Below, one piece after another: positions 4,369 to 45,799 of a stretch of DNA of 64,000 bases. The stretch's first letter is position 1, and every line of letters begins with the position of its first letter. The notes beneath the pieces were generated by a model that saw nothing but the letters and a program-made list of their open reading frames with translations, was not told the DNA's origin and searched no databases. The stretch comes from a virus. Location of the stretch: positions 32,001-96,000 of the IMG/VR virus record IMGVR_UViG_3300014613_000017. The stretch is one strand, 5' to 3'. The translations under genes were made by a program, and so were the position numbers.

Positions 4369-4409
4369 TGATTCTCAACCTTTCTAAATAAAATTGAACT
4401 TTTAGCAGT

Positions 4410-4691
4410 TTAAATTTCTTCCCAAATTTCAGTCTTTAAAATTTTCACAAAGTCGCCATTGAGCATATCACGCATATCTTGAGCAGTGTCCACATTTTTT
4501 CCTGCCTTGTCATCCCACAAGTATTTTGGTGCTACACGTACTCCATCAATACGGTTAAATTGCTTAGCATGTGAAATTTGCTTTGTAAATGAGTAATTCT
4601 GTAAATCATCTCCGTGGCAATCCTCCCAAACATCCCATAAGTAGCCTTCCTCATTCTTGAAAACAAATGTTTGTCGTGTTTTAGCTTCCAA
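4410..4691 (-). CDS. Hypothetical phage protein (cassette-like unit)
   Basis: AGGAGG RBS; flanked by junction sites 4389 and 4707. Confidence 0.65.
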   Translation of the reverse strand: MEAKTRQTFVFKNEEGYLWDVWEDCHGDDLQNYSFTKQISHAKQFNRIDGVRVAPKYLWDDKAGKNVDTAQDMRDMLNGDFVKILKTEIWEEI

Positions 4692-4719
4692 TGATTACAC
4701 CTCCTATAAAACTCGTCTT

Positions 4720-4923
4720 TTATGTGTTACTGATATTTATAAAGTCTAAAACTTCAACTTTCTTTTTGTCGGCAATTGATTCAAAAAAATCTGCCTTTTC
4801 ATCACTAGCTAGACTGCTGAACAATTTGTTTTGGATCAAAAATAGTTCTCCAATAGCATTTACATAGTCACCATCATCAATTTCATACGTCACTTTTTCG
4901 TAAGAAATAACTTTCATTTTCAT
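4720..4923 (-). CDS. Hypothetical phage protein (cassette-like unit)
   Basis: RBS; stop codon lies in junction site 4707. Confidence 0.65.
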   Translation of the reverse strand: MKMKVISYEKVTYEIDDGDYVNAIGELFLIQNKLFSSLASDEKADFFESIADKKKVEVLDFINISNT

Positions 4924-4948
4924 CTCTCCTCCTTATAAAACCTCTATT

Positions 4949-5191
4949 TTACCCCTCATATGCTTTCAGTATGGCTGCCCTAGCTTTGTCTTGTTCTTCA
5001 TCAGAACTATCAATACTCTCAAACAAGTTACATCCAAAATCAGCTTCAGTTTCAATCCAATCGACTGATCCTCCATCCCAACCAAGATCAAGCTCTATGT
5101 CAATCTTATCTTGTATCTTGTAACACTTTCCGTAGCCATATCCGTTGTCGATATACTTCCAATGTTTGCAGACATCACATCTTTGTCTCAT
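4949..5191 (-). CDS. Hypothetical Cys-containing phage protein
   Basis: CDVCKHW...C motif; stop in site 4936. Confidence 0.65.
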   Translation of the reverse strand: MRQRCDVCKHWKYIDNGYGYGKCYKIQDKIDIELDLGWDGGSVDWIETEADFGCNLFESIDSSDEEQDKARAAILKAYEG

Positions 5192-5240
5192 TTCAATCCC
5201 CCTTGCTTAAAGCTAAATTTATTCATTAAAAAATCTGACT

Positions 5241-5639
5241 TTATTTTAAAGTTCCCAACATTGCGTCACGAATCTTATCTGCTTCTTGTTTTGCTACATC
5301 CTTGATTGCTTGGCTTACTTGGTTCATTGATTGCTTTGTGACAAGATTGCTGACTTCCTGAATAGACTGCTTGTGAAGTTTTTCAACTGCCTTATTGACA
5401 ATTCGATCTTGCATTCCTGTTGTATTTAGTTGCTCAGAGAGCGTACTTGTAATTTGATTGGCTACTGATTGTTTAATACTTTTGGCTGCTTCCTCAACTG
5501 TTGAATTCCAACCTCCCATATTTTGAAGGATTCTGCTGGTGACTTCATTTACAATTGACTGTCTTACTTCATTCTTGAAATCTTCTTCTGTGTAATACTC
5601 ATCGTACATGTCATATTCAACTTGCATATTAAATTTCAA
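5241..5639 (-). CDS. Hypothetical helical protein
   Basis: GGAGG RBS; upstream TTGACA-N18-TATAAT promoter at ~5671-5700. Confidence 0.65.
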   Translation of the reverse strand: MKFNMQVEYDMYDEYYTEEDFKNEVRQSIVNEVTSRILQNMGGWNSTVEEAAKSIKQSVANQITSTLSEQLNTTGMQDRIVNKAVEKLHKQSIQEVSNLVTKQSMNQVSQAIKDVAKQEADKIRDAMLGTLK

Positions 5640-5743
5640 ATTCTTACCTCCTCTTCCATATCTACTTTTGATTATAATTTACTATTATATAAGATGTCAA
5701 CAGTTATAATTTATTTATTTTCAATTCAAATAAAAATCCTCTT

Positions 5744-6061
5744 TTATCTTGATTGAGGGGTAATTAAATCGTCAGGATTGTGCAAATCCTCAAATCCAAT
5801 TCCTTCTTCAACCATCCGTTTCAACTTCGAATTTTCCTCTTTTAGAACATATATGTCATTTATTAGAGCTAGGAAGAACCTGTCTCCTTGTGGACTTCCC
5901 CAAACTTCACCATTTACTGTAATACCTATGGGACTGCTTCCGTATTTGCTATAAGACTTTTTATATTCAATTACTTTACCGTTGTGATAAGTTTTATAAT
6001 ACAAGTCTTCCAAGTTATTAACCTCCCAATAAAAACTGCCTTTTATTTCTGATCGAATCAA
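5744..6061 (-). CDS. Hypothetical phage protein
   Basis: ORF; stop in site 5731. Confidence 0.6.
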   Translation of the reverse strand: MIRSEIKGSFYWEVNNLEDLYYKTYHNGKVIEYKKSYSKYGSSPIGITVNGEVWGSPQGDRFFLALINDIYVLKEENSKLKRMVEEGIGFEDLHNPDDLITPQSR

Positions 6062-6462
6062 GGATTTACGAATACTGCGTCAATTTCTTTACGATACCGC
6101 TCGAAAATTGCTTCAGTAATAAATTCAATTTCAGCCTCTACTTCACGAAATTCGTCCGTATCAGTCAATCCTGCAATCTTCAACTGGTAATATTCTTCTA
6201 ATAATCGTTCCAGTTCTGCTTGCTCTTCTGCAATCTTTGGCTCTAATGCGGTTTTCATTTGACTTGTTATATCAGTATTTGCAATTAATTCATTCTTCTT
6301 ATCAAATCCTGTTCCACCAATGTCTCTACTTGCTTGGCTAATAACTTCAGTTGTCCATGAAGTTGTTGCTCCAATTTTACTTCCAATAAAGAATGTTCCA
6401 ATAAGGACTGCTACTGCTAGTAATGCGATCAATAATTTCTTTTTCATGTATGATTTCCCCAT
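6058..6462 (-). CDS. Secreted or membrane-anchored protein
   Basis: MKKKLLIALLAVAVLIGTFFIG signal/TM segment. Confidence 0.65.
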   Translation of the reverse strand: MGKSYMKKKLLIALLAVAVLIGTFFIGSKIGATTSWTTEVISQASRDIGGTGFDKKNELIANTDITSQMKTALEPKIAEEQAELERLLEEYYQLKIAGLTDTDEFREVEAEIEFITEAIFERYRKEIDAVFVNP

Positions 6463-7055: not shown

Positions 7056-7115
7056 TATTTCACCTCTTTTTAGTTCACAGTTTAAGTCAACTGTGCGATA
7101 AAACTCAACTTTTAA

Positions 7116-7403: not shown

Positions 7404-7431
7404 GCCCTAACCTCCATTTAAAAGTTTGATT

Positions 7432-7824
7432 TTACTCTTCTTCATCGTCCTCACAATTTGCATATATGCTTCCACCTTGCTCTTCGATCTGCTCAGGTGT
7501 CATTCCAGCTTCTATATCAATTTCACCTGTTTCTTTCCATTTATCAAAGGTTACTTGGGGGTAGTAGGGATTATATCTGTCAGCAGACCACCCATCAGGA
7601 ACTAAAGCAAATGTTCTTACTATATCTGTTAGACAGTCCTCGCACAAATCAAATGACCAAGATTCCATATCATACCTGCTACCATATCCAAATGAACAAC
7701 CAAATTGTTGAAATAACACCTCACCCCACATTTCTTTGGAGGATTCTTTTTTACATTTATTGCACTTCACATTAACTATTTTAGTTTCATGGATTACTCT
7801 TTCTTTTGTTTCGTATTCTCTCAT
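7432..7824 (-). CDS. Zinc-binding hypothetical protein (cassette-like unit)
   Basis: CNKC...LCEDC; between sites 7419 and 7840. Confidence 0.7.
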   Translation of the reverse strand: MREYETKERVIHETKIVNVKCNKCKKESSKEMWGEVLFQQFGCSFGYGSRYDMESWSFDLCEDCLTDIVRTFALVPDGWSADRYNPYYPQVTFDKWKETGEIDIEAGMTPEQIEEQGGSIYANCEDDEEE

Positions 7825-7864
7825 GGATTCCCCTCCTATTAAAACGAGTGTTTTAAGTTATAAT

Positions 7865-8463: not shown

Positions 8464-8500
8464 TCCACATTCCTTTCTGTTTGTTGTTAAAAGAATAGTT

Positions 8501-8872
8501 TTAATTGCTATGTTTTAATAAAAATTCATCAACAGTCATGTACCATATATTCTCATCGTTTCCATCTGCAATGTCCTTATTGATCATTCTTAAGATTTCA
8601 CGTACATTTACATTTGATTTATTATTAACCTCTAAATCTCCCCAGTTAACTTTTGTTAGGTCTATTACATGATATGATCCTTCATCCTCAACAATATATG
8701 CTTCTTCGTCAACTTCAATTGTGAAATGGTTTTCTTGGCTATCCTTGTCTCCCCAAGCCCAAAACGAATCGCCTGATTTAAATAGGCTTCTTCCTGCTGA
8801 ACACGTAAACATTTTCACTGTATTTCCTCCCTTTAAAACAAGTAGTTTATTTGTTATTTTGCTTAACTTCAA
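8501..8872 (-). CDS. Hypothetical phage protein
   Basis: ORF; stop in site 8488. Confidence 0.6.
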   Translation of the reverse strand: MKLSKITNKLLVLKGGNTVKMFTCSAGRSLFKSGDSFWAWGDKDSQENHFTIEVDEEAYIVEDEGSYHVIDLTKVNWGDLEVNNKSNVNVREILRMINKDIADGNDENIWYMTVDEFLLKHSN

Positions 8873-9383: not shown

Positions 9384-9409
9384 TCTATCCCTCCATTAAA
9401 ATTAGACAT

Positions 9410-10135
9410 TTATTGTATTGCTGACTCCGCTACTTTAAATCCTAAATCTTCAGCTTCTTTTTTAACAAATCCACCATCTAAATGCATGCAATAAACCCTA
9501 TCTCTTACGTCCGACTTCACCAATTCATCTAATTTTCTCAAGGAGAGATGTACATTCCCTTCGTAATCAGCCTTACAAGTGTCTTGATAGAAATAATCAA
9601 AGACTCCACTGTGCAGATTTCCAAGGATGGTTTTTGGAATATCATTAGAATCTCCACTGTAATATGCAACTTTACCTTCAAACTGAATAACATATCCATA
9701 GCAATCTAGCTCTTTTACATGTGTAACATCTACAGACTCCACTAGCATTTTTAAATTATCAATGATTACATTGTTATGAAACTGTACTAAGTTATATGAG
9801 TTTTGTTTTACTCCCACCATTTTTAACAAGCGACTGATTTCTAAGAAGTAAGGTGCGTAAACAGTAACATTAGGCTTCATCATTTCTCCCATTGCATAAT
9901 AGCCGTAGAATATTAAATCCCCTAATGAGCCAACATGATCTGGATGTGTATGAGTTAATAATACTGAAATATCTTCAATTCCTTCTAATAGCCCTGCCTC
10001 AATGATTCGATCAAAAGTGTTGCTACCACAATCAATTAGAAACAAGCTTTTGTCTTTTTTGATAAATGCTCCATTGTTGCCTAGTTTTGTATTGAATGCA
10101 CTTCCTGTGCCAATAAATTTCAACATGTTATTCAT
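9410..10135 (-). CDS. apyc1: Metallo-beta-lactamase-fold hydrolase, Apyc1-like anti-Pycsar cyclic nucleotide phosphodiesterase
   Basis: GTGSAFN, FLIDCG, THTHPDHVGSLGDLIFY, YYSGD, DTCKADYEGNVHLS, YCMHLD match the Apyc1 subfamily as recalled. Confidence 0.8.
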   Translation of the reverse strand: MNNMLKFIGTGSAFNTKLGNNGAFIKKDKSLFLIDCGSNTFDRIIEAGLLEGIEDISVLLTHTHPDHVGSLGDLIFYGYYAMGEMMKPNVTVYAPYFLEISRLLKMVGVKQNSYNLVQFHNNVIIDNLKMLVESVDVTHVKELDCYGYVIQFEGKVAYYSGDSNDIPKTILGNLHSGVFDYFYQDTCKADYEGNVHLSLRKLDELVKSDVRDRVYCMHLDGGFVKKEAEDLGFKVAESAIQ

Positions 10136-10422: not shown

Positions 10423-10469
10423 TTCACCCTCTCCTTCCCTTGTAAAAACGTTATTTTATTTGGTATTAA

Positions 10470-11518: not shown

Positions 11519-11759
11519 TATTTATGCCTCCTTATAGTTAATTAATTAGATAAGTTTTATAAATTGTATTTCTTTTTAATTTCCTCGTTTCTTCTTCCAC
11601 TGTCCTCAATATCCAGTTCAATCATTCTCGTCCATATCTTATTTAATACAAAATATGAAGTCAGATCTCTACTTTTCATCGCCTTTTCGCTTTCAGCATA
11701 TAATTCATCTTGTAGCGTCTTCCATTTATCCATAGTTTACCTCCATTAAAATAGAAGTT

Positions 11760-11966
11760 TTAATTAAACTCTTTTTTGTGTTTCTCAATAACTTTACGCA
11801 TCATTGTTTTACCACTTCTAGTTCCAATGAATACAGTCTTTGCTAATAGCCCTTCTGCATATAGTTTTAGATATGCCTTTTGCCATTCAAGCAACTCAAA
11901 ACCAAGATATTTTTCAGCGAAATAGGCAGGATCATTTTTACATTTTTGAAATTCTTGATTGTTCAC
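11760..11966 (-). CDS. 68-aa microprotein resembling the N-terminus of a large terminase ATPase
   Basis: KCKNDPAYFAEKYL...LLEWQK...TRSGKT (Q-motif plus Walker A-like). Confidence 0.65.
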   Translation of the reverse strand: MNNQEFQKCKNDPAYFAEKYLGFELLEWQKAYLKLYAEGLLAKTVFIGTRSGKTMMRKVIEKHKKEFN

Positions 11967-12628: not shown

Positions 12629-13237
12629 TTTTACACTTCCTTTAGTTTAATAAATACAATATTTTAATTGTTTGTTTTGTTAGTTTTGTTAATCTTTTTT
12701 AAAAGTGACAGCTCCCAAGAGGTACAGTGCACAATTTTCCCATCTAAAATCCACCAAGAAGGCTTTTCCTTTAGTCTCTCAATAATAGACTCCAAGGTTT
12801 TATTGCTTACAAATCCACCTTTATGCACCTAAATCACCTCATTCTCCAATAATACTGATCGTATTTCCGCATATAAATCCTCAAGCAGCATTACTTGAAT
12901 ATCCAGCTTCCCACCATTCTCTAACTTATAATCCATTATCTCAATAAGTTTGAACATGCGATCATTTAGATTCTGTAGTCTTGTTATTTTGTCCACTCTT
13001 AGTCATCCCTTTCTTATTCCTTAATTCTTACTTCAACCGTGTCAAAATCTACCTCATATCTGTCTCCGCTAAATCCAGATATTCCTACAATAGAATCAAC
13101 ATATGAGGTGTCTCCAAGCTTCTTAAATAAGTATTCCTGAACTGCTTGTGTAAATTCTTTTTTAGTCAACTCAACTTTCATCGTTTTTCTCCTTCCCCCC
13201 TAAAATAACTCTTTTAATGAATAATGTTTTCATACTG

Positions 13238-13661: not shown

Positions 13662-13711
13662 GTTTCTTCACTCCTTGAAATGTTTTTATGCTTCCAATTA
13701 AAACCAATCTT

Positions 13712-13939
13712 TTATTTGTTAATGTCCACACAAACCATTTTGCTACTAAATGAACTTATTACATTAAATCCACTGTTTTTTAGATATTCTGAGATACAAT
13801 ACCTAACTACATCATCAGGAATAGAAATCACATAGCAATCTTTTTCCCAATTTTTAATGTCATTATAAACTTTTTCTAGCAATGTATTTATTTCATTTAG
13901 TGTTTCCTCGAAATAATTACTCGCCTTCATATTCTTCAA
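13712..13939 (-). CDS. Hypothetical phage protein
   Basis: Stop in site 13699. Confidence 0.55.
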   Translation of the reverse strand: MKNMKASNYFEETLNEINTLLEKVYNDIKNWEKDCYVISIPDDVVRYCISEYLKNSGFNVISSFSSKMVCVDINK

Positions 13940-14456: not shown

Positions 14457-14489
14457 ACTAGCAACCCCTCTCCTATTAAAATTTTCGTT

Positions 14490-14621
14490 TTATTCGATAA
14501 CGTCATTTTCTTCGTCTTTTTCGTCATCTAGCCAAACTATCCATCCTTGCCCTCTAATCCCTTGTGTATCAAGGGTTTCAGGCGACTCTATAACACTTCC
14601 GTTCTTAAACACGATTTTCAC
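14490..14621 (-). CDS. 43-aa microprotein resembling the terminase ATPase NGS/Walker B segment
   Basis: Manual translation (GTG start, GGAGG RBS): VKIVFKNGSVIESPETLDTQGIRGQGWIVWLDDEKDEENDVIE; flanked by sites 14477 and 14637. Confidence 0.65.
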   Translation of the reverse strand: MKIVFKNGSVIESPETLDTQGIRGQGWIVWLDDEKDEENDVIE

Positions 14622-14656
14622 CTTTTCAACCTCCGATAAAATGCACATTTTAGTCT

Positions 14657-15790: not shown

Positions 15791-16094
15791 TTTCCCCGTT
15801 TCTATTAAAGTAGTTTACACTATTTACTATATACATATTTCCAATAATTATCAATACTTTATTTATAATTTATTAAATAAATAATTATTGAGCTGTTTAA
15901 TCGTTCATAATTGTTGCTCTTATAGTTAATTAAAAAATGGACATAATAACTTTTAAGGGCGGTGATCTTCTTGGAAGATGCATTCAAAGTTTTGTCCATT
16001 GCTGTAGTTGCTTCTGTAGTTGTGGTTTTTACTATTTATATGACTGTTAATATTTTTTGTTATCACTTAGGTATGTGCTATTAAAAGATGCTTT

Positions 16095-16466
16095 TTAATT
16101 GATGTTGCTTAACGCTTGTCGTGCAATTTTTCCTGCATCAATGCTAACTGTTGTATTCTCACCATCCACTAACAGATTGTTTTCTTCATCTGCATAAAAC
16201 TTCAACGCTTCACGTAGACGGTCAATTTCAGCATCTTTTCTTTCGAGGTTATCTTGATGTGCATTTGCTACTATTACACGTGTTTCTCGCAAAGTGTCAA
16301 CGTTTTTTTGTAACCCTTTTATGTTGCTTTGGAGATAATCAATGCCTATTTCCAACTCTTCCACACGTTCAGCTTGTTCGATAAGCCACCTAATATCTAG
16401 GTGAAGGTATTTCATTGTGCCAAAGCCTTGAGTTTTAATTTGTTCTAGACGTTCCTTATCTGTCAT
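16095..16466 (-). CDS. Coiled-coil phage protein (cassette-like unit)
   Basis: GGAGG RBS; LREALKFYA motif; between sites 16082 and 16492. Confidence 0.65.
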   Translation of the reverse strand: MTDKERLEQIKTQGFGTMKYLHLDIRWLIEQAERVEELEIGIDYLQSNIKGLQKNVDTLRETRVIVANAHQDNLERKDAEIDRLREALKFYADEENNLLVDGENTTVSIDAGKIARQALSNIN

Positions 16467-16504: not shown

Positions 16505-17152
16505 TTAATTGGCTTCACCCTCATCTTCGTCTTTCCACATTTGTAGCCAACTTGCTATAACATCGTATCTGATTTCATCGTAAACTTCTGAACTTATAAA
16601 CCATTCATCCCAATCTTTATTATGCTTGATAGAATTGCAACCTTTGCAAGCTAAAACACAGTTATCAATACCATCTGAGCCATTGTTATAAGCATGATCT
16701 TTGTGTAGATTGTTATTATATTTAGCTTTAGCCTCGGTTTCACTGATGCCACAATACATACAGGAACTGTTAGCGTAATCATATAATATAGCCAATTCTT
16801 CATTGGATATGTCATGATTTTTATGAGATTGTCTTTTTTCTCTGTATGTCTTAATCTTGTCTTTGTTGTTGCGTTGCCATTCTAAATACTTACCACTTTT
16901 TCTATCTTCTCTGTTTCTCTCAAGTCTTTTTGCTTTATAGTGCTCTCTAGCATCTCTTTCTTTGTAATATTCTCTCCATTTTGTCTCGTTTTCTTTTTTC
17001 CAATTAGCCGAATATTCTCTAGAACATTCCTTACATGAGGAAAATAACCCATCTCTACTGCTTTTATGCTTATAGAAAAACTCTGATGTTGATGGGAATG
17101 TTTCCAAACACTTCTTGCATTGCTTCTCCAAAACTTCACCTTCCTCTCCCAA
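16505..17152 (-). CDS. HNH endonuclease with N-terminal C4 zinc finger
   Basis: CKKC...FFY...DG...CKEC; CMYCG...LHKDHA...NCVLACKGCNSIKH. Confidence 0.85.
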   Translation of the reverse strand: MGEEGEVLEKQCKKCLETFPSTSEFFYKHKSSRDGLFSSCKECSREYSANWKKENETKWREYYKERDAREHYKAKRLERNREDRKSGKYLEWQRNNKDKIKTYREKRQSHKNHDISNEELAILYDYANSSCMYCGISETEAKAKYNNNLHKDHAYNNGSDGIDNCVLACKGCNSIKHNKDWDEWFISSEVYDEIRYDVIASWLQMWKDEDEGEAN

Positions 17153-18668: not shown

Positions 18669-19667
18669 TTACTTAATCAAATCATATCCATATAAATTTT
18701 TAAATAACTCTGTCTTAAGTAGCAGCTTAATTACATTTGTATTTCTGTTTTCATATTTATCAACCTTCGTCATAGCTGTGTCAAACTGATCTCCAATGAT
18801 TTTTAAATGCTCTGGCTTAAATTCTCCATCTCTGTTATAGAGTTCATTAGCCATGTGCATCATACCTGATACTTGAATGTCTTTTGATTTCAAAAATTTA
18901 AGATCAAATACTTCTTTATAAATTACGAACTTTCGATTGATATAAAATAAGTCTAATTTTCCTTCTTGTTTTCCTCTTGTTGTTTTCTTGAATATAAATT
19001 CTGAATCTAATAGTTTGCTGGTACTTTGTCTGTCACTTACTGTATTTCCATTTTTATTAACATATTCAGTTTCTTTATCTGTTTTATGAAGTAAATCAAA
19101 TAGTGTTTCTGAAATCTCGATTGTGCGGAATGATCCATCTTTTTGATATAGCGTAGCTAAAAATTTTCCATCTTCCTCTTTTAAGTCCTGTGTGCGTAAG
19201 TTAAGGATTTCTGAAAACCCTTCTCCACTAATTCCCTCAAACAAAGCTAATAACACTGCTCTATCACCATAATTGATTAAATCCTCTAGTCTGTGTAAAA
19301 GCTGCTTTCTTGTAAATGCTGACTGCTTATATTTAGCTACAAACTGTTTAGACCACTCTAATTTATTAACGTTTGATAATGGATTCAGGTTGCTTTCTAC
19401 ATGCCCATTCTCATAAGCCCAATCAATATATTGTTCAAACTTAACTGCGTGATTATAAGCTGTATTAGCTGATGATACAGATAGTGATTTCATTACTTCT
19501 CCTAATTCATCAATCGACATATCGAACATATCTTTTCCAAATAGTTCTTCAGTTTTCTTAGCTGTTATAAAAGGATATGCATATAATTTACGTGTCTCAT
19601 TATGTTGGATTGTATTTAGATAATCAATTTTAATATCTCCATTATAAAAGTTTTCTTTATTTAACAT
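18669..19667 (-). CDS. yopR: YopR/MrpR(SroF)-like repressor with degenerate tyrosine-recombinase fold
   Basis: FYNGDIKIDYL..., QYIDWA, RAVLLALFEGISGEGFSEILNL parallel recalled SPbeta YopR; catalytic R and HxxR missing; synteny. Confidence 0.75.
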   Translation of the reverse strand: MLNKENFYNGDIKIDYLNTIQHNETRKLYAYPFITAKKTEELFGKDMFDMSIDELGEVMKSLSVSSANTAYNHAVKFEQYIDWAYENGHVESNLNPLSNVNKLEWSKQFVAKYKQSAFTRKQLLHRLEDLINYGDRAVLLALFEGISGEGFSEILNLRTQDLKEEDGKFLATLYQKDGSFRTIEISETLFDLLHKTDKETEYVNKNGNTVSDRQSTSKLLDSEFIFKKTTRGKQEGKLDLFYINRKFVIYKEVFDLKFLKSKDIQVSGMMHMANELYNRDGEFKPEHLKIIGDQFDTAMTKVDKYENRNTNVIKLLLKTELFKNLYGYDLIK

Positions 19668-19745: not shown

Positions 19746-21071
19746 TTAAATTAAACCTCTAAAGTATTTACTTATTCTTGATTCATCAATTTGATTATTA
19801 ATTTTACCATCTAATCTAATTATGCCTAGCTCTTTCCATAAAGGATTATCTATTTTAAAGTCTACTTTATCAAGGATTGATTTTAATTTTTCAAATTCTA
19901 AATTTTGTTTTTTCATTTCTGCTGCTAATCCAATATATCCTGCAAACAATTTGTTATAAGCCATAATTGATTCATTCTGATTTCTTGTTGATAAAAATTC
20001 GTCTGGATATAATCCAATCAGATACTCAAAGAATGTTGTTAGATACTGTCCAGTTTGTCTTGCTTCAAGTAATGACTTCATTGGAAACTCTCTGTCAATT
20101 GAATCTGCTAAAACTCTGTAGCTCACTAATTCTCCTGCTGTTATATTCATTCTTGAGCCTGTAGTTGTAACTCGATCACGCAACTCTGATTCTGATTTCA
20201 AAATTTGAACTACTGTATCTGCCAACCTGTTTTTTTCTAGCTCTTGAATACGTGCTGTAGGAATTGGTGTAGCCTTAGCTAACTGTGCTTGATACTGTTG
20301 AGCCTGTGCTGTAGTGTAGTTTGATATCATTACAACAAATCGGAAATCTAAGTCTGGATTTTCTGCATATGCTTGTTGAGATGCTAAACATCTATGGTAT
20401 CCATCAAGAATATCTAATCGTGTTCCTTCATTGATTGTAAGCACATTTTTCTTTCCATTGTATGATAGCTCTTCTCCATTGTCGCTAGTCTGTGTAGCAG
20501 CATTGAAGGCTAATGTCGTGTGTATTAACTGATCCTTTTTAAGCAACTCTTTAATTTCTTTTACGTTTTTCTTATAAATTGTTGGTTTAAATAACATTTT
20601 ATCCTTGCGAACAACTCTTGTTGCTTGTCGTTGAATCTCATAGTTATAATTTAGCTTTTTGGATTTCATTAACTGAGCAATCGTTTTGATGTCCAGTGAA
20701 GCAACATATAAGTTGTTTCCAATGTGGATCACGTTTTCAATTTCTAGTGGGAAAACAATATCATCTTCACCATGTACAAACATGTAATCGAATTGTCTTG
20801 CTTCTTTCATTTCAGCTTCAGTAAACCAATTATTAGGTGCAAATTCTTTTAATCCTGTTTTGACATAAAACTGTTCACTGAAGAGTGCTAACTCTCTTAT
20901 ATCTGCATCTTCTAATACTTCAGGCTGTGAAAAGTAATCCTCCACTCTTCCTTCTGTAATTCTATACTTTGATAACTCTTCCTTAATTTCTGATACTGCT
21001 TTTTTATTTGTAGAGATATATTGAATATTATCTTCAATTTTCTCTAAAAGTTCAGCTCGATTTTTGCTCAT
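19746..21071 (-). CDS. yopQ: YopQ(SroE)-like protein with DndB/DGQHR-type domain
   Basis: YNYEIQR, TLAFNA, GEELSY, LDILDGYHR; synteny with YopP/YopR. Confidence 0.75.
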   Translation of the reverse strand: MSKNRAELLEKIEDNIQYISTNKKAVSEIKEELSKYRITEGRVEDYFSQPEVLEDADIRELALFSEQFYVKTGLKEFAPNNWFTEAEMKEARQFDYMFVHGEDDIVFPLEIENVIHIGNNLYVASLDIKTIAQLMKSKKLNYNYEIQRQATRVVRKDKMLFKPTIYKKNVKEIKELLKKDQLIHTTLAFNAATQTSDNGEELSYNGKKNVLTINEGTRLDILDGYHRCLASQQAYAENPDLDFRFVVMISNYTTAQAQQYQAQLAKATPIPTARIQELEKNRLADTVVQILKSESELRDRVTTTGSRMNITAGELVSYRVLADSIDREFPMKSLLEARQTGQYLTTFFEYLIGLYPDEFLSTRNQNESIMAYNKLFAGYIGLAAEMKKQNLEFEKLKSILDKVDFKIDNPLWKELGIIRLDGKINNQIDESRISKYFRGLI

Positions 21072-22808: not shown

Positions 22809-23035
22809 TGTGACATCTCCTTTGAAATGTTATTTGATACTATTCCTTTTTGCTTCTTTTCTAATCTCATTCATTTTAAAGTGCATACAATCCTTATGTC
22901 CTCTGAATGTCTTGCCATACAAAGAAATGATTATAGGCTCTCTACATTTATAAATACATATGTCGCAACCATCATGTCTAAGTCCCCAATCAAATTTATC
23001 CATTTGATCCTCTCCTTCCTTTTAAAATACGCTTT

Positions 23036-23254
23036 TTATTGTGTCTTGTTTACCATTGTAGAAACAAGATTTCCAAACAAATTTTGAGTGCTTTGGAATT
23101 GATTATTGATTCTGTCTTCATGTGCTTGAAGTTTTTCTTTCAATGCTCTGTTTTCTCTTTCTAGCTTACGTTTCTTAGAAATTGTATCTGCGATAACCAA
23201 TGCCATTTCATAGACAGTATCTTCATCAATTATTAATTCATCATAATTTCTCAT
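23036..23254 (-). CDS. Coiled-coil hypothetical protein (cassette-like unit)
   Basis: Between sites 23023 and 23287. Confidence 0.6.
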   Translation of the reverse strand: MRNYDELIIDEDTVYEMALVIADTISKKRKLERENRALKEKLQAHEDRINNQFQSTQNLFGNLVSTMVNKTQ

Positions 23255-23505
23255 TTTTCAATCTCTCCATTTCATATTTTATTTACTAAAATCCTGATTT
23301 TAATTGAATAAATCCCAAACATATTTTTCCCCTTCTGTTTTGCAATCTTTGTTTCTTCTTTTGTTTCTTACTCTAACATTCCGATTCCTCTGCCACATAA
23401 AAAACAATATATTTATAACAACTACTACAACTGATCCTATAAGAAGTCCAATAACTATTCCAATTACCCATCCCAATTTAATTAGCTCCTCTCTTATAAC
23501 TTACC

Positions 23506-25579: not shown

Positions 25580-26004
25580 TAAGTTACCTCTCTCTCCTTA
25601 TAAAAACCTTGTTTTAGTTGATGTTATTTTTAAATTTAAAATTTCCTGCATATAAGGGTTTTCTTTTGTATATATTATTAAGGAATTCCCTTACCGGAGG
25701 GAATTCAACTGTCGTTTCTATGGAATGGGTTTATAGCCTATTCCATTTTTTGTGCCTTTGTTGTTTGAACGTGATTATAATTTACCTAATGAAACATTTA
25801 TTTTATTTGAGAATCCTTTCTGTCTTTTACAGAACAAACTAAAATTAATTCACTTTCTTTTACATGTTTAATCGTTTGTTATTAAATATTGGTAGATATG
25901 ATGGTTAAAAGTTGCAGATATTTCATATAAACCTTTCATAGCTCTAAATTTATGCCTTACAATATCTCCTTTTTCATAAGCCATGTGTATGTCTCCTTGT
26001 TCTA

Positions 26005-26487: not shown

Positions 26488-26528
26488 TCATAATTTATTA
26501 TTTTGTCTTACCTTTTAAAAGATAGATT

Positions 26529-26789
26529 TTACTCGTTGTATTCTTTAAGCGTTTCAATTCCTTCTCTTATCATTTCTTGTGCATAGCTATCTGTTTTAGC
26601 ATCTTCATCTTTATATGTCACAGTAGTTTCATTAGAACTTAAATCAAGTTTGATTTCAGCGATTACTTTTCCTTCCTCATTCTCATCATTTGTGATCCAA
26701 GCATCAATTGACATTACTACATAGCCCTCTTCAAATCCACTTTCATCAATAAACTCATTTTGAATTGCCATCCATTTGTTGTTTTCCAT
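26529..26789 (-). CDS. Acidic hypothetical protein
   Basis: GAGGAG RBS; sigmaA promoter ~26838-26866; stop in site 26516. Confidence 0.65.
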   Translation of the reverse strand: MENNKWMAIQNEFIDESGFEEGYVVMSIDAWITNDENEEGKVIAEIKLDLSSNETTVTYKDEDAKTDSYAQEMIREGIETLKEYNE

Positions 26790-26912: not shown

Positions 26913-27449
26913 TCATTTTCTTACTACATTTACATCAATCAGCTTATTAATTTTACCATCCATTATTGTAGGCATTGGATTAATACTTACTCCACCTTTT
27001 CTCACTTCAAAATGGAGATGTGCGCCTGTTGACCTTCCTGTATTCCCACTCTCTGCTATGATTTCACCTACTTTTACCTTATCGCCTATATTCACATTAA
27101 ACTCGCTCAAATGACCGTATATGACCAATCTTCCATCAGGTGTACGTATCTGAACTGACTTGCCATAACCTACATCTCCTGTGTCTCTAACCTTTTCAAC
27201 TGTACCATCAACAACTGACTTTAATTCTGTTCCTTCTGGTATAACAAAATCGCAACCTGTATGTCCGTTTGGATGAATGTGAGATACATCTCCATAAGCT
27301 GCTGATATATCCCACAAATTATAAGCTGCAACTGGATCAGACATTAATGTGCATGAGATTGATATGATGATAGCTCCCATTAGGATAATTTTCATTAGAT
27401 ACTTTCCATACAATCTGTAAACCACTTTAATCTTATTTGTAAAACTCAT
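26913..27449 (-). CDS. M23-family peptidase with N-terminal TM/signal
   Basis: HTGCD (HxxxD), YGHL, GNTGRSTGAHLHFE. Confidence 0.9.
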   Translation of the reverse strand: MSFTNKIKVVYRLYGKYLMKIILMGAIIISISCTLMSDPVAAYNLWDISAAYGDVSHIHPNGHTGCDFVIPEGTELKSVVDGTVEKVRDTGDVGYGKSVQIRTPDGRLVIYGHLSEFNVNIGDKVKVGEIIAESGNTGRSTGAHLHFEVRKGGVSINPMPTIMDGKINKLIDVNVVRK

Positions 27450-31295: not shown

Positions 31296-31834
31296 TTCCC
31301 TCTTTCTAATTGGTTTATGTATTGCTTACTTTTATAATACTAAATTATAACACAAGTGTCAACATCAAATAATAAAACTTTTTTGAATGGTTAGATATGT
31401 GATAAAACACTAGGAAAACATACTCTTTATAGCCCCTATTGTCGAATAAAATGGCTCTTTTAATTTGAGTGTGAATAGGCTGCTGGAATGTATCTGAGGC
31501 TTGTTAAAATGATGTTGTGAGTGAGTTAGTGTGTTATGTGAATGATTGATTGAATTATGTAATGAGTGGATATAATGAGGTTAGATGTTCTATTCGAGTT
31601 GTAGTTTAAACACTGAGATAGCTGCAACTTGAATTTTTCGTGGTTCTGTTTTTTGCGAACTGTTATTTTGATTTTGAAAATTTTCTTATAAGAATATCCC
31701 AGCATGAAATTTCGCTGCCTGTTATATGAAAAAGCCCAGCTCGAATTTTTGTTTGCTGTTATATGAGAATATGTAAAACCTCTATATATAAAACCCTAAA
31801 ATAAGCTCGATTTTGACCTATTTTGACCTCTAAT

Positions 31835-33035: not shown

Positions 33036-33075
33036 TAAATAATAAAAATACTATTTTAATGGAGGAATTATAAAA

Positions 33076-33228: not shown

Positions 33229-33372
33229 TAAAATACATCTTTTACAGTCTAAAAAATAAATCAAATTTAATTAATAAATTATGAATAAAACTCTTTACAT
33301 CTGAATATAATGGTATTATAATAAAGAGTATCAAGTAGTAAAAAAATTATAAACAAAAGGGAGATCGACAAA

Positions 33373-33912
33373 ATGACAAATCAACTTTACATTGCTAACC
33401 TAGGGAAATACAATGAAGGAATTTTACAAGGTGAATGGTTTACATTTCCAATTGATATGGATGAAGTAGCTGAAGTTATCGGATTAAATTCACAATATGA
33501 GGAATGGGCTATACATGATTATGAGTTTGATTTCCCTTTAAGTATTGGTGAAAATGTAAACATTGACAACTTAAATGAATTCATTGAAGAAATAGAAAAT
33601 AACCGTGGTTTATCTGAATTGTTTGAGGTTATGCAAAAGGATCAGTACAATACAGATCGCATAGCTGAAATTGCAATTAGTGTAATACCTGAACATGATA
33701 TAGTTCATGATGATTCAGTAAATGCAATGGTTAAAAATATGATTGATGATAGCGGTTATGAAAGTGTAAAAAACTTCTTATATAATGCTAATTCTAATAG
33801 TGTATACCATATTATTGACGGCTATGGAAATCTTGAAAGATTGACGGTTGAATATCTTGAAAACCTTGTAAGCGAATATATAGATGAATTGAAACAAGGC
33901 TATAGATTCTAA
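33373..33912 (+). CDS. ardA: ArdA-family antirestriction protein
   Basis: LYIANLGKYNEGILQGEWFTFP...EEWAIHDYE...IDNLNE is the ArdA signature; acidic. Confidence 0.85.
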   Translation: MTNQLYIANLGKYNEGILQGEWFTFPIDMDEVAEVIGLNSQYEEWAIHDYEFDFPLSIGENVNIDNLNEFIEEIENNRGLSELFEVMQKDQYNTDRIAEIAISVIPEHDIVHDDSVNAMVKNMIDDSGYESVKNFLYNANSNSVYHIIDGYGNLERLTVEYLENLVSEYIDELKQGYRF

Positions 33913-40334: not shown

Positions 40335-42638
40335 TTATAATTTATTATCAGAAACTTCAGCATTCATATCAGTATTCATCTCAGCATTAATCAGATCACG
40401 TAGGAAGGTTTTACGGACTGAGCTTGCATCTACTGTGATAGCCTTATGCAATGCATTTCCTTCTACCAATGCAACTCCTTTTTCAATTGCACGAGTAATT
40501 GCTGTATAAACTAACTGACGTGATAGCAATGTGAATGCACCATAGTCTAATGCAAATACGACATGCTTGATTCCACTTCCCTGTGAAGAATGAACAGTGA
40601 GAGCATATGCCAATTGAATCTTATCCAATTCCTTCTTCTCAATAAACACATCACCAACTTGCCCCTCGAATCGAACAAATACACCCTCCAAGTCACCTGA
40701 GATAAGCACATCACCTATGATTCCCATTGTGCCATTGTAGACAGTTGTTGTAGGAGTCTTCTCATCCTCTTTCACATATTGTATGAATTGGTCAAATGAA
40801 TAGAATACTGGAATGTCATATGAATTTCCTTTATGGATAACCTTATCATTCATCTTGAATGTCTGATTTCTATGAACAATCGAATCTGATTCAGCAGCAT
40901 TGAATATCTTCTGCATTTCAGTATTCAGATTTTCTACAGATAAAACTTTCTTGTCCTTGTTAGCAACAATAACTTGGAAATCAAATAAATCTTTCGGCTC
41001 TTTGATTTTCTCTTTATATGCGTTAGCAATATTTAAAATATCTCTTGCAATATTATCTTTAGTCTCACCACTGTAAGCAATAACCGTTTGATCTTGTAAT
41101 TCACCATACGTTTCTTTTGTAGTTGTTTTAACATTGTATTTCATAATCTGCTTACCATCTCGGATATCATTAGCTAGACTGAGTATGCCTGATTTAGAAG
41201 CTTGTCTATGAACTTGTGTTAGCTCATATGAAGGGAACAGATTAGTAGTTAGTAAATCACGCAATACATCACCATAGCCAATTGCAGGAAGCTGACCGCT
41301 ATCTCCTACTATGATTAACTTAGCACCATTTTTAATCGCTTCAAGCAGTTGTAGACTAAGGTTAACATCAACCATAGAGAACTCATCGGCAACAACCAAG
41401 TCATAGTCCATCTGCACTTTTTCATTAGGGTTCTGATTGCCACCAATAGCTCGGTGAATGGTAGATGATTCAATTCCTTTGAGTGCTAATACCTGTGCAG
41501 CTTTTCCACTCAATGCAACTGTAATGTAATTCTCTATCCCTAGTGTCTTGATGATTCCAGATACTAAAGTTGTTTTACCAACTCCACCTTTACCATTAAT
41601 GACCATTACACCATGTTTATAACCTTCTATTAGCACTTGATGCTGCTCTTCTGTAAATGTGAAACCTTGTTCAGCTTCAACTTGCTTAATTCTAAAGTTC
41701 ATATCATGCTCATTTTCAGTGAACTCATATGAATTAGCAATTCGTTTTAACTCTTGAAGCACTGATTGCTCTTGCTCATACACATAACGGAAAGTGATAC
41801 GGTTATCATTTGCATAGAAGTATTCATTCTTGCTAAGGTTGTTGACACTCTCAATTAATGAATCAAGTTGCAACTCCAATAGTTTAGCTAACTTATCTAA
41901 CAAGTCACCACGTTTAATCCAAGTGTGTCCACTATCTAATTCCTTTTGAATGACATAGCTGATAGCTGAATGGATGCGATTAGAATTGTAAGGGTCATCT
42001 CCTCTAGCCATAGCTACTTTATCTATCGTAAGGAATCCAAATGTATCAATCTTGCATAGTTCGTAAATGTTTGTAGTAATAATGTGCAATGCTTTTTTTG
42101 CATCGTTATAGTGGTCATTAATCTTCTTCAGTTGATTCGTTGTGAAACCCATTCCTTCTGATCCTGCAATAACTACAGACAATTCATCATTTGTTTGGAT
42201 TTTCTCTCTAATCTTATCTAGTGTCTTATCCTTGATGCCTTTTGTCTTTGTTGTATCAATTTGATTGGCAACAATTAAATCAACCAGCTTCTGATTAGGA
42301 TATGCTTTAGTAAGTGTATCGAATTGTGTCTCAGTTAAGATTGCTTTCAGGAAACGATTCTGTGATTCCATTGTGTCTAACTTTTCAGCTTCAACGTCCA
42401 ATATCTTATAGTAAGCTCCATATTGTTCATGCATGTAGTGTCCTTCAAACTTAACTAAATATGTTTCACCTTTAGTCAATTGTCTTGTATCACCTTGGAT
42501 AGCTACGTTATTGAATTTGTTTTTGATTAGTTCTTGGTTGTAATTAACAGGCAGGCATCCGTATATGCCACTTCCACTATCTTTATTGTAGAACACTTCT
42601 CTTATTATCCTTACTTCCATTTCATACGTCTTCGTCAT
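40335..42638 (-). CDS. recD2: RecD2-like SF1B helicase
   Basis: GKGGVGKTT, VVADEFSM, GDSGQLPAIG, VHRQ, YALTVHSSQGS, YTAITRA; N-terminal OB/HhH region. Confidence 0.92.
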   Translation of the reverse strand: MTKTYEMEVRIIREVFYNKDSGSGIYGCLPVNYNQELIKNKFNNVAIQGDTRQLTKGETYLVKFEGHYMHEQYGAYYKILDVEAEKLDTMESQNRFLKAILTETQFDTLTKAYPNQKLVDLIVANQIDTTKTKGIKDKTLDKIREKIQTNDELSVVIAGSEGMGFTTNQLKKINDHYNDAKKALHIITTNIYELCKIDTFGFLTIDKVAMARGDDPYNSNRIHSAISYVIQKELDSGHTWIKRGDLLDKLAKLLELQLDSLIESVNNLSKNEYFYANDNRITFRYVYEQEQSVLQELKRIANSYEFTENEHDMNFRIKQVEAEQGFTFTEEQHQVLIEGYKHGVMVINGKGGVGKTTLVSGIIKTLGIENYITVALSGKAAQVLALKGIESSTIHRAIGGNQNPNEKVQMDYDLVVADEFSMVDVNLSLQLLEAIKNGAKLIIVGDSGQLPAIGYGDVLRDLLTTNLFPSYELTQVHRQASKSGILSLANDIRDGKQIMKYNVKTTTKETYGELQDQTVIAYSGETKDNIARDILNIANAYKEKIKEPKDLFDFQVIVANKDKKVLSVENLNTEMQKIFNAAESDSIVHRNQTFKMNDKVIHKGNSYDIPVFYSFDQFIQYVKEDEKTPTTTVYNGTMGIIGDVLISGDLEGVFVRFEGQVGDVFIEKKELDKIQLAYALTVHSSQGSGIKHVVFALDYGAFTLLSRQLVYTAITRAIEKGVALVEGNALHKAITVDASSVRKTFLRDLINAEMNTDMNAEVSDNKL

Positions 42639-42943: not shown

Positions 42944-43507
42944 ATGGATTTGGCAGATGTAAAAATTAGAGTAGATGATAGTAGTAATAGCTTATTCTTT
43001 AAGGACTTTACTCTTTCTGATATTAACGTAATAAAATTATTGATTCAATACAGATACAAATATGACAACTATCTTTATTCAGAGAAAAACTTCTTCTTTG
43101 GTGAAGCTGGTGAGATTCAATCAATGAATGAGGAGATTATACTTACTTATATATCTTTAGATCAGACCATTGTGGAATGCAACTTCTCACCTGAACAACT
43201 GAAACTAATTGGATTGTACGAGCATGGATTCACCATAAAGGAAATGGCTACAGAGATGGGATTAGGCACAGACAAGTATATTAGAAAGAAATTTAACACG
43301 ATATGCAATCAGATAGTTAAGCAAAACTTATGGAATTGGCGGAAAACGCACTATACACATTCGCTGAAACTCAAGAGCAAGAAATGCAGTAAGTGTAAGG
43401 AGTTCTTACCAGCTACAGATGAGTTTTTTAGCCCGTTACACCATACAAAAGATGGCTTCCACAGCCAGTGTAAGAAGTGTAAAGATTTAAATATCCGAAA
43501 AACATAG
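42944..43507 (+). CDS. Putative transcription factor: sigma region-4/LuxR-like HTH plus C4 zinc finger
   Basis: QLKLIGLYEHGFTIKEMATEMGL HTH; CSKC...FF...DGFHSQCKKC. Confidence 0.5.
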   Translation: MDLADVKIRVDDSSNSLFFKDFTLSDINVIKLLIQYRYKYDNYLYSEKNFFFGEAGEIQSMNEEIILTYISLDQTIVECNFSPEQLKLIGLYEHGFTIKEMATEMGLGTDKYIRKKFNTICNQIVKQNLWNWRKTHYTHSLKLKSKKCSKCKEFLPATDEFFSPLHHTKDGFHSQCKKCKDLNIRKT

Positions 43508-43515
43508 GCAAATAG

Positions 43516-43959
43516 GTGTTCAAGGACACGAACTATATTAGAGGGAGTTATTTTATGAAATTAAAATTTACGAATGGGAAGTCTTTTCTTCTTCCAGATA
43601 GCATTGAGCCATCAGAAAGATTGATTGAAATTAATAAAGTATTAGAATCAGAACTTATATTTGATGGTCGCAAGATGACTGTTGAAAGTTACTTTAGAGA
43701 AACTTGGAATAAGCCGACAACATTAACAGCACTAGATAGAATCAGTTACTACTTAAGCAAAATGCCAGAACAAAAAGGTCAGCACGACTCAGCTATCCTT
43801 TCTAAGAATGATGAAATGGAAATGAATCAAGGTGTTCGCTGGAAGACTCAAAAAGGCGAAAGAATTATTGTTAAAGCAAGATATTCAAACTTTGGGGACT
43901 TAAGCTTAGATTTAAAAGCTGAAATTGGACTAATAGATACAAGCGATTCTTACAATTAA
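43516..43959 (+). CDS. Conserved hypothetical phage protein
   Basis: GGGAG RBS before MKLKFTNG. Confidence 0.6.
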   Translation: MFKDTNYIRGSYFMKLKFTNGKSFLLPDSIEPSERLIEINKVLESELIFDGRKMTVESYFRETWNKPTTLTALDRISYYLSKMPEQKGQHDSAILSKNDEMEMNQGVRWKTQKGERIIVKARYSNFGDLSLDLKAEIGLIDTSDSYN

Positions 43960-44110
43960 ACTACTGTTTGGGAGTTAAAACCTCCCAAATTAATAAATTA
44001 TAACTTAATAATACACAGAAATGTACGAAAAAGCAACGAAAACTAAAGGTTTTTGCGTTATTTTCCCTAAAAAGCGTAAGAAAACACAGAGAAAAAGGAG
44101 ATTGAATTAA

Positions 44111-44413
44111 ATGACATTATTATCAAAAGGTGAATTCGTATCAGCATTAGCAGCACAACGAGAGGTTACTAAAAAGGAAGCGTCTGAATTATTGGATGAT
44201 GTATTTGCAGTAATTGATAGTGCGTTAATTGATGAATTGAAAGATGTAAAACTAGGCGACATTGGAACACTGAAAGTGGTTGAAGTTCCTGAGCGTACCC
44301 ATAAAAATCCTAAAACTGGTGAAGCAGTTATTAAACCTAAACATTATGCAGTGAAATTTAAAACTAATAAGAACTTCAAAGAAGACTTAGCTGAAGTTCC
44401 AGTAGAAGGGTAA
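44111..44413 (+). CDS. hup: HU-family DNA-binding protein (YonN-like)
   Basis: KGEFVSALA...VKLGDIGTLKV...RTHKNPKTGE...VKFK. Confidence 0.9.
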   Translation: MTLLSKGEFVSALAAQREVTKKEASELLDDVFAVIDSALIDELKDVKLGDIGTLKVVEVPERTHKNPKTGEAVIKPKHYAVKFKTNKNFKEDLAEVPVEG

Positions 44414-44503
44414 AAATAACTAATCATGGAGTGAAGAACTGCTGTCGATCATTATCACATACGTTCGGTAACTACTCACACCTTCATTCCATGGTTCTTA
44501 TTA

Positions 44504-45769
44504 ATGGGGATGCTTATGACAGAAAAACTTTGGATTGCTGACACTAATTTTTTATACAACGGAGTCGAAGAAGCGATTGAAAGCAAGAAAATTGTTCTCA
44601 TGTCTACTGTGCGTCAAGAGGCAGATAAACATAAGAATGCAACTGACGTTGACTTGCGATTCAAGGCTAGAAAGCTAAATAGATTTGTTTTTGAAAACTA
44701 CGATAAGTTTCATCACGATGTTGGTGAATACAATCCTGAAGTTATTTTGGGTGAAGATTATGATCGTGGAGTTATGGACAACCGAATCGTGGCTTGTGCA
44801 AAGGCAAATGGATATGGGATTCTCACAAATGATTTAAACCTCTTCTCTACTGCTAAAGCATTTGGAATTGAAGTTGACACACTTGATTCTGGATTATTGC
44901 TAAATAAAGGTGAATACACAGGTATCCTAAAAGTATATGTGACTAGAAACAGCACAGAAGAAGAGTTGTTTGCAAAAGTATATCAAGACCCAAGTGTTAA
45001 CTCATTTGGACTATTAACTAATCAATACATTGTTTTCTATGATAAAGATACGCCTATTGAATTTGACGAAGAGAAAAATCCAACAAAATATAAAGTACTA
45101 GATAAACTTAGATGGAACGGAAAAGAGCTAGTTAAACTTAAACTTCCTCATAAGAAAGTTGTACAGGCTAGGAATGAAGAACAAGAATGTGCAATTGATT
45201 TGCTTAATAATGATGATATTCCAATTAAATTTATTATTGGTGTAAGCGGATCAGGGAAAACTAAACTATCTGCAAAATTAGGTATCCACAAAGTAGTAGA
45301 TACTGGAGCACATGCAAAAATTCTTGCAATCAGAAATCCAATTGGTTCAGGAGAGAATATTGGTTTCTTGCCAGGAGATTTCTCCGAAAAGACAGATAAA
45401 TTCTTCGCACCAATCATTGATTGCTTAAAGGGTGGAGAACTGGAAGCTGCACTAATGGAACAGAAAGGTCAACTAGAGAAACAAATTCCTTACTTCTCAA
45501 AAGGGCTTACTTGGAACGATAGCTATGTACTTGTCGATGAAGCTGAGGATTTAAGCAGATCGAACGTCATCTTGCTTGGTTCTCGAATAGGCATACAGGC
45601 TACAATTGTCTTTGCTGGTGACTATAAACAAGTTGAAGATAAGTATTCTCGCAACAATGGTTTGATTCAAGCTATTGAAGAACTTAAAGGTAAATCATTA
45701 GTTGGTGTAGTATCACTAAGCGATGACATTCGTTCTGAAGCTTCTAAGTTATTTGCTGAAATGAATTAA
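44504..45769 (+). CDS. phoH: PIN domain-PhoH ATPase fusion
   Basis: IADTN...DNRI...TNDLNL (PIN); GVSGSGKT, IGFLPGD, LVDEAEDL, GDYKQ (PhoH). Confidence 0.9.
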   Translation: MGMLMTEKLWIADTNFLYNGVEEAIESKKIVLMSTVRQEADKHKNATDVDLRFKARKLNRFVFENYDKFHHDVGEYNPEVILGEDYDRGVMDNRIVACAKANGYGILTNDLNLFSTAKAFGIEVDTLDSGLLLNKGEYTGILKVYVTRNSTEEELFAKVYQDPSVNSFGLLTNQYIVFYDKDTPIEFDEEKNPTKYKVLDKLRWNGKELVKLKLPHKKVVQARNEEQECAIDLLNNDDIPIKFIIGVSGSGKTKLSAKLGIHKVVDTGAHAKILAIRNPIGSGENIGFLPGDFSEKTDKFFAPIIDCLKGGELEAALMEQKGQLEKQIPYFSKGLTWNDSYVLVDEAEDLSRSNVILLGSRIGIQATIVFAGDYKQVEDKYSRNNGLIQAIEELKGKSLVGVVSLSDDIRSEASKLFAEMN

Positions 45770-45799
45770 TAGTAAATTGTAATTAAAACTACACTTTTA

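Follow-up and report, generated by a model that had tools for sequence, protein, structure and literature searches.

Why should one short interrupted palindrome, TAAAA-N6-TTTTA, stand again and again at the junctions of accessory genes in a phage genome, each time around a different six-base core? The question is raised by a stretch of 64,000 nucleotides (the window), bases 32001-96000 of the 127,183-bp phage genome in IMG/VR record IMGVR_UViG_3300014613_000017, which we assign by protein similarity to a distant SPbeta-like phage (large terminase 53.6% identical to SPbeta YonF). Its contig probably stems from a groundwater metagenome. Through comparison with related phages, we propose that the copies of this 16-bp motif are, in all probability, preferred crossover joints with position-specific cores. 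To a dedicated site-specific recombinase acting at these sites we give even weight.

The motif was found in 25 perfect copies in the window against 1.05 expected (standard deviation 0.93; none of 100 shuffled sequences reached this number) and in 44 copies in the whole genome. The first-pass annotation of the window had reported 22 perfect copies in excess of chance and read them as an integron-like gene-cassette array; the excess was confirmed and its copies are real, those at 6030, 31447 and 61000 having escaped it. A spacer of six alone is enriched, the TAAAA and TTTTA arms at other spacers from 0 to 15 giving 0-3 copies each, and no other 5-mer palindrome with N6 exceeded three copies. As one-mismatch variants were not in excess (14 found, about 22 expected), the motif is all-or-none. 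A full-text literature search for the motif string returned nothing relevant, only an unrelated archaeal paper.

The sites punctuate the genes in a recurrent manner. About 40 of the 44 genome copies lie between genes and about four are intragenic, and the placement at accessory-gene boundaries noted earlier is supported. Apart from the copy at 61000, which lies within a conserved late gene, the late region of the window is sparse in sites. The layout of stop codon, site and ribosome binding site (RBS) is true of the transcript orientation, and only by virtue of the motif being equal to its reverse complement; the genes over window 1-32 kb lie on the minus strand, as judged from GC/AT skew and the list of open reading frames, which the earlier description of an RBS directly after the site had left unmentioned. 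Read in transcript orientation, a stop codon precedes the majority of copies; it overlaps the site in 10 of the 25 window copies through the TAA of the first arm, where about half had been estimated, and an RBS or a -35-like TTG begins 3-4 nt past the site, with G at +19 in 32 of 44 copies. Besides, the sequence logo has weak features, namely A at -2 (77%) and W at -1 in the flanks and, in the window phage, outer core positions poor in A and T; in 203 pooled cores of six phages, the outer core positions favour T and A. Nine genes had been described as bracketed by two sites. Seven of them, at 4410, 4720, 7116, 7432, 14490, 23036 and 33076, are bracketed by perfect sites, and those at 11760 and 16095 are not, the latter having a one-mismatch copy at 16492.

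The window phage was set against a relative (REL), 48.7 kb of a 293-kb metagenome contig that was reached by stepwise extension along the contig and had been found by a protein search with the gene adjoining site 6030 (69%-identical protein). The two phages share protein identities of 76% for YopP, 78% for YopQ, 81% for MrpR and 90% for DnaB, and most accessory genes are without a counterpart between them. REL carries 31 sites, seven of which have the exact cores of window sites 23287, 14637, 7840, 7099, 5731, 4936 and 4389 (0.26 expected), colinear and in a single relative orientation. The identity at these seven sites ends at 16 bp, extending by 0 nt past one edge and by 0-2 nt past the opposite edge, and their 150-bp flanks align no better than random sequence. 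The REL genes flanking them had no tblastn match in the window genome, with one exception at 14637, where the upstream REL gene has a window homologue, but away from that site. A 16-bp island kept while both flanks are replaced places the end points of exchange inside or exactly at the site. This pattern implies that the sites may well be crossover points, though not the sole ones, and we infer that the crossovers fall inside the site. Contigs of a sediment metagenome run (X2), holding relatives of the window phage at 85-95%, gave two further joints. In one contig, window position 4103 is joined to a site with the core of 4389 and then to unlike DNA, the gene at 4093-4368 being absent; in another, window homology begins 4 nt before site 6030. 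Three apparent joints from a further run (X1) were dismissed, one side being just 20-24 nt and repeat-like.

The same arrangement was observed in six genomes of the SPbeta clade (SPbeta, phi3T, Goe11, Goe12, Goe14 and SPbetaL1), which have about 60% mutual coverage at 93-95% identity and hold 30-36 sites per genome with 57 distinct cores overall. Ends of blastn blocks lay at most 10 bp from a site in 10-18% of cases against about 1% at random, with block starts clustering at -2..0 of the site and block ends at +15..+17. The homology within this clade takes in the entire site and stops at its outer edge. Equal-core pairs between these genomes numbered 344 against about 4 by chance, and gapped local alignment of their 150-bp flanks found both flanks alike in 119 pairs, the left only in 55, the right only in 65 and neither in 105; for 67 of these 105, tblastx gave no match in the 450 bp to the left or to the right. 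Shared cores keep their orientation and a perfect cyclic order in 15 of 15 genome pairs. When the six genomes were pooled, breakpoints were found at 140 of 172 site junctions and at 319 of 937 site-free junctions (odds ratio 8.5). In the SPbeta clade, in REL and in X2, the sites mark places at which related phages differ in gene content.

The cores themselves carry further information. No core is duplicated within any of 11 genomes. The earlier observation that all cores of the window differ is true and, within one genome, is also the chance expectation (0.46 duplicates expected); the minimum Hamming distance between cores of one genome was likewise the same as in shuffles. Among 199 distinct cores there is no palindrome, where 4.4 would be expected (P ~0.012), and asymmetric, unduplicated cores fit a crossover site that needs direction and must avoid pairing in cis. 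Together with the strict spacer of six, this agrees with the earlier comparison of inverted arms around a 6-bp core to the crossover layout of tyrosine recombinases.

The motif was also enriched in other SPbeta-like phages when counted against the reversed pattern as control (motif/control): SPbeta (34/2), Psychrobacillus phage Perkons (17/2), Mammaliicoccus phi6255 (36/3), Geobacillus E3 (30/7), Bacillus pW2 (28/1) and a Staphylococcus SPbeta-like phage (17/8); Lysinibacillus LC76P1 gave 4/1. Three Bacillales chromosomes had no motif excess (20/28, 68/77 and 15/20). As the phages are enriched and these three chromosomes are not, the motif is a signature of the SPbeta-like phage family and not of host DNA, and a host factor as reader of the sites is disfavoured on the same ground. 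The core repertoires of different clades had none in common (1.2 expected), which excludes convergence on a small core repertoire. The SPbeta clade and the window phage had no core in common, nor did the window phage with two distant relatives at about 55% protein identity, a metagenome contig (L108) and a Bacillus sp. sequence (L109). These two share the core GGAAAG between themselves (L108:11345 and L109:12122; 0.01 expected). The addresses thus seem to be conserved within sub-lineages only. A megablast of 20 kb against the phage collection gave no close relative, and a search of IMG/VR with two window proteins gave no match.

The sites of the window are listed below, with cores in transcript orientation.

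4389..4404, core GTTCAA, address common to REL; a same-core site stands beside other DNA in sediment run X2
4707..4722, core GACGAG, stop-site-RBS junction
4936..4951, core TAGAGG, address common to REL
5731..5746, core GAGGAT, address common to REL, promoter-like motif downstream
6030..6045, absent from the first-pass annotation; homology of an X2 relative begins 4 nt before it
7099..7114, core GTTGAG, address common to REL
7419..7434, stop-site-RBS junction
7840..7855, core CACTCG, address common to REL, -10-like box directly upstream
8488..8503, perfect copy
9397..9412, decayed copy with one arm TAAAT; its core GTCTAA equals that of REL site 26594
10443..10458, adjoins a gene conserved in REL
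11747..11762, perfect copy
13201..13216, perfect copy
13699..13714, perfect copy
14477..14492, perfect copy
14637..14652, core TGTGCA, address common to REL
16082..16097, core AGCATC; the colinear REL site 16244 has AGTATC, one base different
16492, one-mismatch copy
23023..23038, perfect copy
23287..23302, core TCAGGA, address common to REL
25601..25616, adjoins a gene conserved in REL
26516..26531, promoter-like motif downstream
31447..31462, absent from the first-pass annotation
33043..33058, within the plus-strand block
33229..33244, upstream of the ArdA-like gene
45784..45799, after the PhoH/PIN gene
61000..61015, inside the conserved late gene 60812-61474, possibly a chance copy; absent from the first-pass annotation

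Another intragenic copy, some 2 kb ahead of the window at genome position 29990, lies in a conserved gene (74% protein identity) and is also kept at REL 39003 with cores one base apart (GCAATA and ACAATA).

We suggest the following course of events at these sites. They would be double-stranded DNA joints at module boundaries, each with a pair of invariant arms and an asymmetric 6-bp core of its own that would serve as an address. When two related genomes meet in one cell, by co-infection or by infection of a lysogen, strand exchange would take place inside the 16-bp site, solely between matching cores, and all DNA to one side of the matched address would be exchanged. Two such exchanges would swap a block of genes and leave gene order and orientation unchanged. 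Copies in one genome would not recombine together because their cores all differ, and the absence of duplicate cores, along with their fixed order and orientation, points to allelic exchange between two genomes and not to exchange between copies in cis. The earlier idea that genes are exchanged at the sites thus survives in substance, and shuffling within one genome is not supported by the unduplicated, ordered cores. The crossovers may be made by a dimeric tyrosine recombinase seated on the arms, which would need core identity, and a YopP-like protein might be that recombinase. Whether the joints pair only with equal cores and are cut, probably, by a tyrosine recombinase is a proposition for which we see the arguments in balance. 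The fuller form of it, a natural cassette exchange with 30-45 heterospecific sites in which a phage tyrosine recombinase (YopP/SroD or a partner) joins equal-core copies of co-resident genomes, is put forward as a possibility that falls somewhat short of an even chance.

The proteins that come into question are encoded side by side in the window:

18669-19667, minus strand, MrpR/YopR/SroF-like repressor with recombinase fold (Pfam MrpR_N_CB, MrpR_C_cat)
19746-21071, minus strand, YopQ/SroE-like DndB-family protein, neighbour of the recombinase
21214-22221, minus strand, YopP/SroD-like tyrosine recombinase, candidate enzyme (Pfam Phage_integrase)

The first-pass annotation had named the YopP-like recombinase as the possible agent, and it is indeed encoded with its catalytic residues kept: R162, K188, H245, K248 (Arg/Lys in relatives), H271 and Y280 are conserved in nine phages at 25-76% identity. 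MrpR is reported to have lost catalytic residues (PMC10516654). The YopP-like gene lies mid-array in a yopP-yopQ-yopR module, the nearest site being farther than about 800 bp. As the enzyme acting at the sites it is a candidate that we rate as doubtful, for reasons that appear below.

Several observations speak against crossover at the sites or against the proposed enzyme. The breakpoint excess of the pooled genomes shrinks under matched controls, which were restricted to same-strand junctions of similar gap length in the SPbeta early region: 11 of 13 junctions with a site are breakpoints, as are 16 of 29 free of sites (P = 0.09). Where gene blocks are conserved in both window and REL, only about 4 of 26 block edges meet a site, and four of six X2 breakpoints lie at site-free junctions. 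The alignment with related phages, suggested earlier as a check, gave 16-bp identity islands with replaced flanks and, beside them, breakpoints free of sites. Laboratory hybrids of phi3Ts and SPbeta (Hyb1-3, MT366946-8) switch parent inside identical tracts of 1.4-18 kb; with tracts of this length at the switch points, ordinary homologous recombination suffices, and the hybrids are uninformative on the sites. The arms are 5-7 bp long with five invariant bases each, while tyrosine recombinases usually have arms of 9-13 bp, and the strictness of the phage arms is left without explanation by the crossover model. Recombination at the sites is read from the comparison of sequences, no event having been seen directly. 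With regard to YopP, Lys takes the place of the second catalytic Arg in both the window phage and SPbeta (phi3T, E3 and Perkons have Arg), and SroD/YopP was reportedly described by Brady and colleagues in 2023 as an auxiliary repressor. Moreover, LC76P1 has a YopP-like gene (40% identity) but no motif, which tells against the recombinase named earlier; this phage has no MrpR-like or YopQ-like homologue and, for any 5-mer arm with spacers of 0-12, no enriched palindrome. Its YopP-like gene is split by the record start (OP172811.1, 164924-165295 and 25-651). As for the hybrids, several of their switch tracts are bounded by TAAAA sites, e.g. Hyb2 104630-106015 with sites at 104632 and 106012, from which it follows that the shared blocks of the parents begin and end at sites.

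The main rival is that a dimeric DNA-binding protein docks at the motif and has a different primary role, mainly regulatory or architectural, such as that of a roadblock, an insulator or a silencer of early operons; the crossovers would then be a side effect, due to 16-bp microhomology or to breaks induced by the protein. We hold this to be unlikely, though it has more in its favour than the other alternatives. The 5-N6-5 palindrome sets its half-sites one helical turn apart in the classic layout for a dimer, the strict upkeep of the sites suggests use in every infection, some sites abut promoters, and an MrpR-like gene was present in five of five motif-bearing phages and the one phage lacking MrpR had no motif. 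However, if a protein read the arms alone, there would be no reason for the cores to survive the replacement of their flanks, nor for their asymmetry and order, and the sites have no constant arrangement with respect to promoters. Chromatin affinity precipitation sequencing (ChAP-seq) of SPbeta MrpR gave ten peaks, all at SPBRE, and identity of the motif with this operator was rejected because the sequences differ, the upstream regions of the ten MrpR-bound SPbeta genes sharing a ACAAAWAATATGTATA-like element (PMC10516654). Identity with the SroF box was rejected likewise, as the box of phi3T is asymmetric, 26 bp long and bound by SroF as a monomer (bioRxiv 10.1101/2025.11.27.690993). YopQ/SroE is disfavoured as the binder, being missing from the motif-bearing pW2. 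A signal acting in RNA, as a hairpin or protein site 5' of the RBS in mRNA processing or translation, would agree with the RBS 3-4 nt after most copies and with the stop codon often lying in the first arm. We consider it highly improbable, as the predicted hairpins reach only -0.7 to -3.3 kcal/mol and are often not the preferred fold, in line with the earlier judgement that a stem of A-U pairs is too weak for RNA structure; there was no match to an Rfam family and no G-U or compensatory variant of the arms, and core conservation would be left unexplained. The sites occur upstream of -35 boxes, directly after -10 boxes and within operons, and in SPbeta at convergent and divergent junctions too, and such varied placement fits neither an operator nor an mRNA signal, the two alternatives that had been offered with the cassette array.

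The integron-like cassette array of the first-pass annotation supposes that neighbouring sites recombine in cis and that the circles leave and re-enter elsewhere. In its favour are several single genes that lie between two sites, a tyrosine recombinase gene in the neighbourhood and the differing gene content between equal addresses among relatives. But the insertion of a circle would leave a duplicated core, whereas within a genome the asymmetric cores all differ, with no duplicate in the 11 genomes, and the addresses are fixed in order and orientation; moreover, the sites are perfect 16-bp palindromes, unlike attC structures, and no attI/Pc arrangement seems to adjoin the recombinase. No excised circle was seen, the sequencing runs being present as contigs only. 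The analogy is not sustained, and we regard such an array as very improbable. Equally remote, to our mind, is an endonuclease of the BstXI or SfiI style that cuts within the N6 of an interrupted palindrome, with a ligase rejoining matching, address-specific overhangs into ordered chimeras in mixed infections. Strict arms around a free centre in a 5-N6-5 arrangement are the established layout for such enzymes, the address matching would be accounted for, and genes for HNH nucleases are present; against this, 44 self-cleavage sites would be costly to a phage, phages normally lose such sites and do not accumulate them, and no candidate enzyme is conserved over the motif-bearing phages. Position-specific crossover joints remain the reading that we prefer.

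Apart from the module described above, the following genes were annotated in the window:

9410-10135, minus strand, Apyc1-like metallo-beta-lactamase-fold protein of the anti-Pycsar family (Pfam score barely above the cut-off)
16505-17152, minus strand, HNH endonuclease
26913-27449, minus strand, M23 peptidase
33373-33912, plus strand, ArdA antirestriction protein
40335-42638, minus strand, RecD2-like helicase
44504-45769, plus strand, PIN-PhoH protein

The Apyc1-like and ArdA genes sit among the site-flanked accessory genes. Homologues of the former (52-67% identity) occur in unrelated phages without the motif, and the Apyc1-like neighbourhoods in other phages (L005-L023) had neither the motif nor another enriched palindrome. 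In REL, an IS605 OrfB/TnpB (Cas12f-like) gene follows directly after the homologue of window gene 6058-6462 (L071:10482-11627) and has no counterpart in the window. Sites at REL 28051, 33496 and neighbouring positions lie 5-7 nt past a box resembling TATAAT and precede a conserved TTGGRCAGTAGACAAYATAAAGC stretch, an arrangement that looks like a repeated cassette of promoter and 5' untranslated region around the site and is lacking in the window. A second repeat, ATAAT-N2-ATTAT within AATAATAAATTATAAT, has 19 genome copies, those in the window including 22487, 23727, 23793, 26490, 28636, 33935, 36242, 40337, 42660 and 47877. It resembles a -10 box preceded by a fixed part, is found before an RBS as a rule and sometimes adjoins a TAAAA site, and could be the early promoter of the phage together with a local counterpart of the SPBRE operator.

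The joints at gene boundaries in phage mosaics have been debated since the modular theory of phage evolution, and the motif offers a defined element of 16 bp that is carried by SPbeta, a tractable model phage, and stays put while the genes on both sides change. If the proposed crossover holds true, it would explain how anti-defence genes such as those of the Apyc1-like and ArdA-like proteins move between phages with operons intact, and it would let a whole phage lineage swap its accessory and anti-defence genes in an ordered and frame-safe manner. It would also provide ready-made landing sites for phage engineering.

Among known systems, integron attC and attI sites likewise punctuate small accessory genes and may hold the stop codon within the site. 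The attC sites are imperfect palindromes of 57-141 bp with R''/L''-L'/R' boxes that act as folded single strands, whereas the phage sites measure 16 bp with weak A/W flanks; attC sites recombine together and with attI, releasing circles, and the phage cores do not fit such a scheme. SPBRE, the operator of MrpR/YopR/SroF, is likewise a repeated intergenic element of this phage family whose binder has the tyrosine-recombinase fold. It is an asymmetric box of about 15 bp at some ten promoters (PMC10516654), lying upstream of yorE, aimR, yonT and others, while the palindrome has another sequence and 34 copies in SPbeta and stands separately, sometimes nearby. Stoperators of cluster A mycobacteriophages are asymmetric 13-bp elements of one consensus oriented with transcription, whereas the phage motif is symmetric, with position-specific centres and no fixed promoter geometry. 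Also comparable are the promoter-early stem-loop (PeSL) cassettes of T4-type phages and the boundary or linker sequences of lambdoid phages, which are likewise short and conserved, lie at gene boundaries of hyperplastic regions and coincide with mosaic joints; they are thought to mediate the shuffling of modules. These are longer and repeat the same sequence, homologous recombination being thought responsible, whereas each phage site has its own core, ends its identity at 16 bp and is mostly promoterless.

Likenesses are also found among core-type sites of tyrosine recombinases, such as lox, FRT and dif, which consist of inverted arms around a short centre. The pdif sites that flank dif modules on Acinetobacter plasmids, served by the host XerC/XerD, are likewise short sites with 6-bp centres beside variable accessory modules. 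They have two unlike 11-bp arms resembling chromosomal dif and depend on host Xer proteins, while the phage arms are symmetric and presumably unlike the dif of B. subtilis, and for pdif no position-specific conservation of the centres is known to have been described. Heterospecific lox and FRT sites, as used in recombinase-mediated cassette exchange, likewise combine inverted arms with an asymmetric centre of 6-8 bp. The likeness leads to the expectation that equal centres alone recombine, that unequal copies in one molecule are inert to each other and that the DNA between two addresses is open to exchange. Should the arms be read by a recombinase and the cores be addresses, the phage sites would be a natural counterpart of heterospecific lox sites; the latter have arms of 11-13 bp and their heterospecific sets are man-made, whereas the phages carry arms of 5-7 bp and about 30-45 natural addresses per genome.

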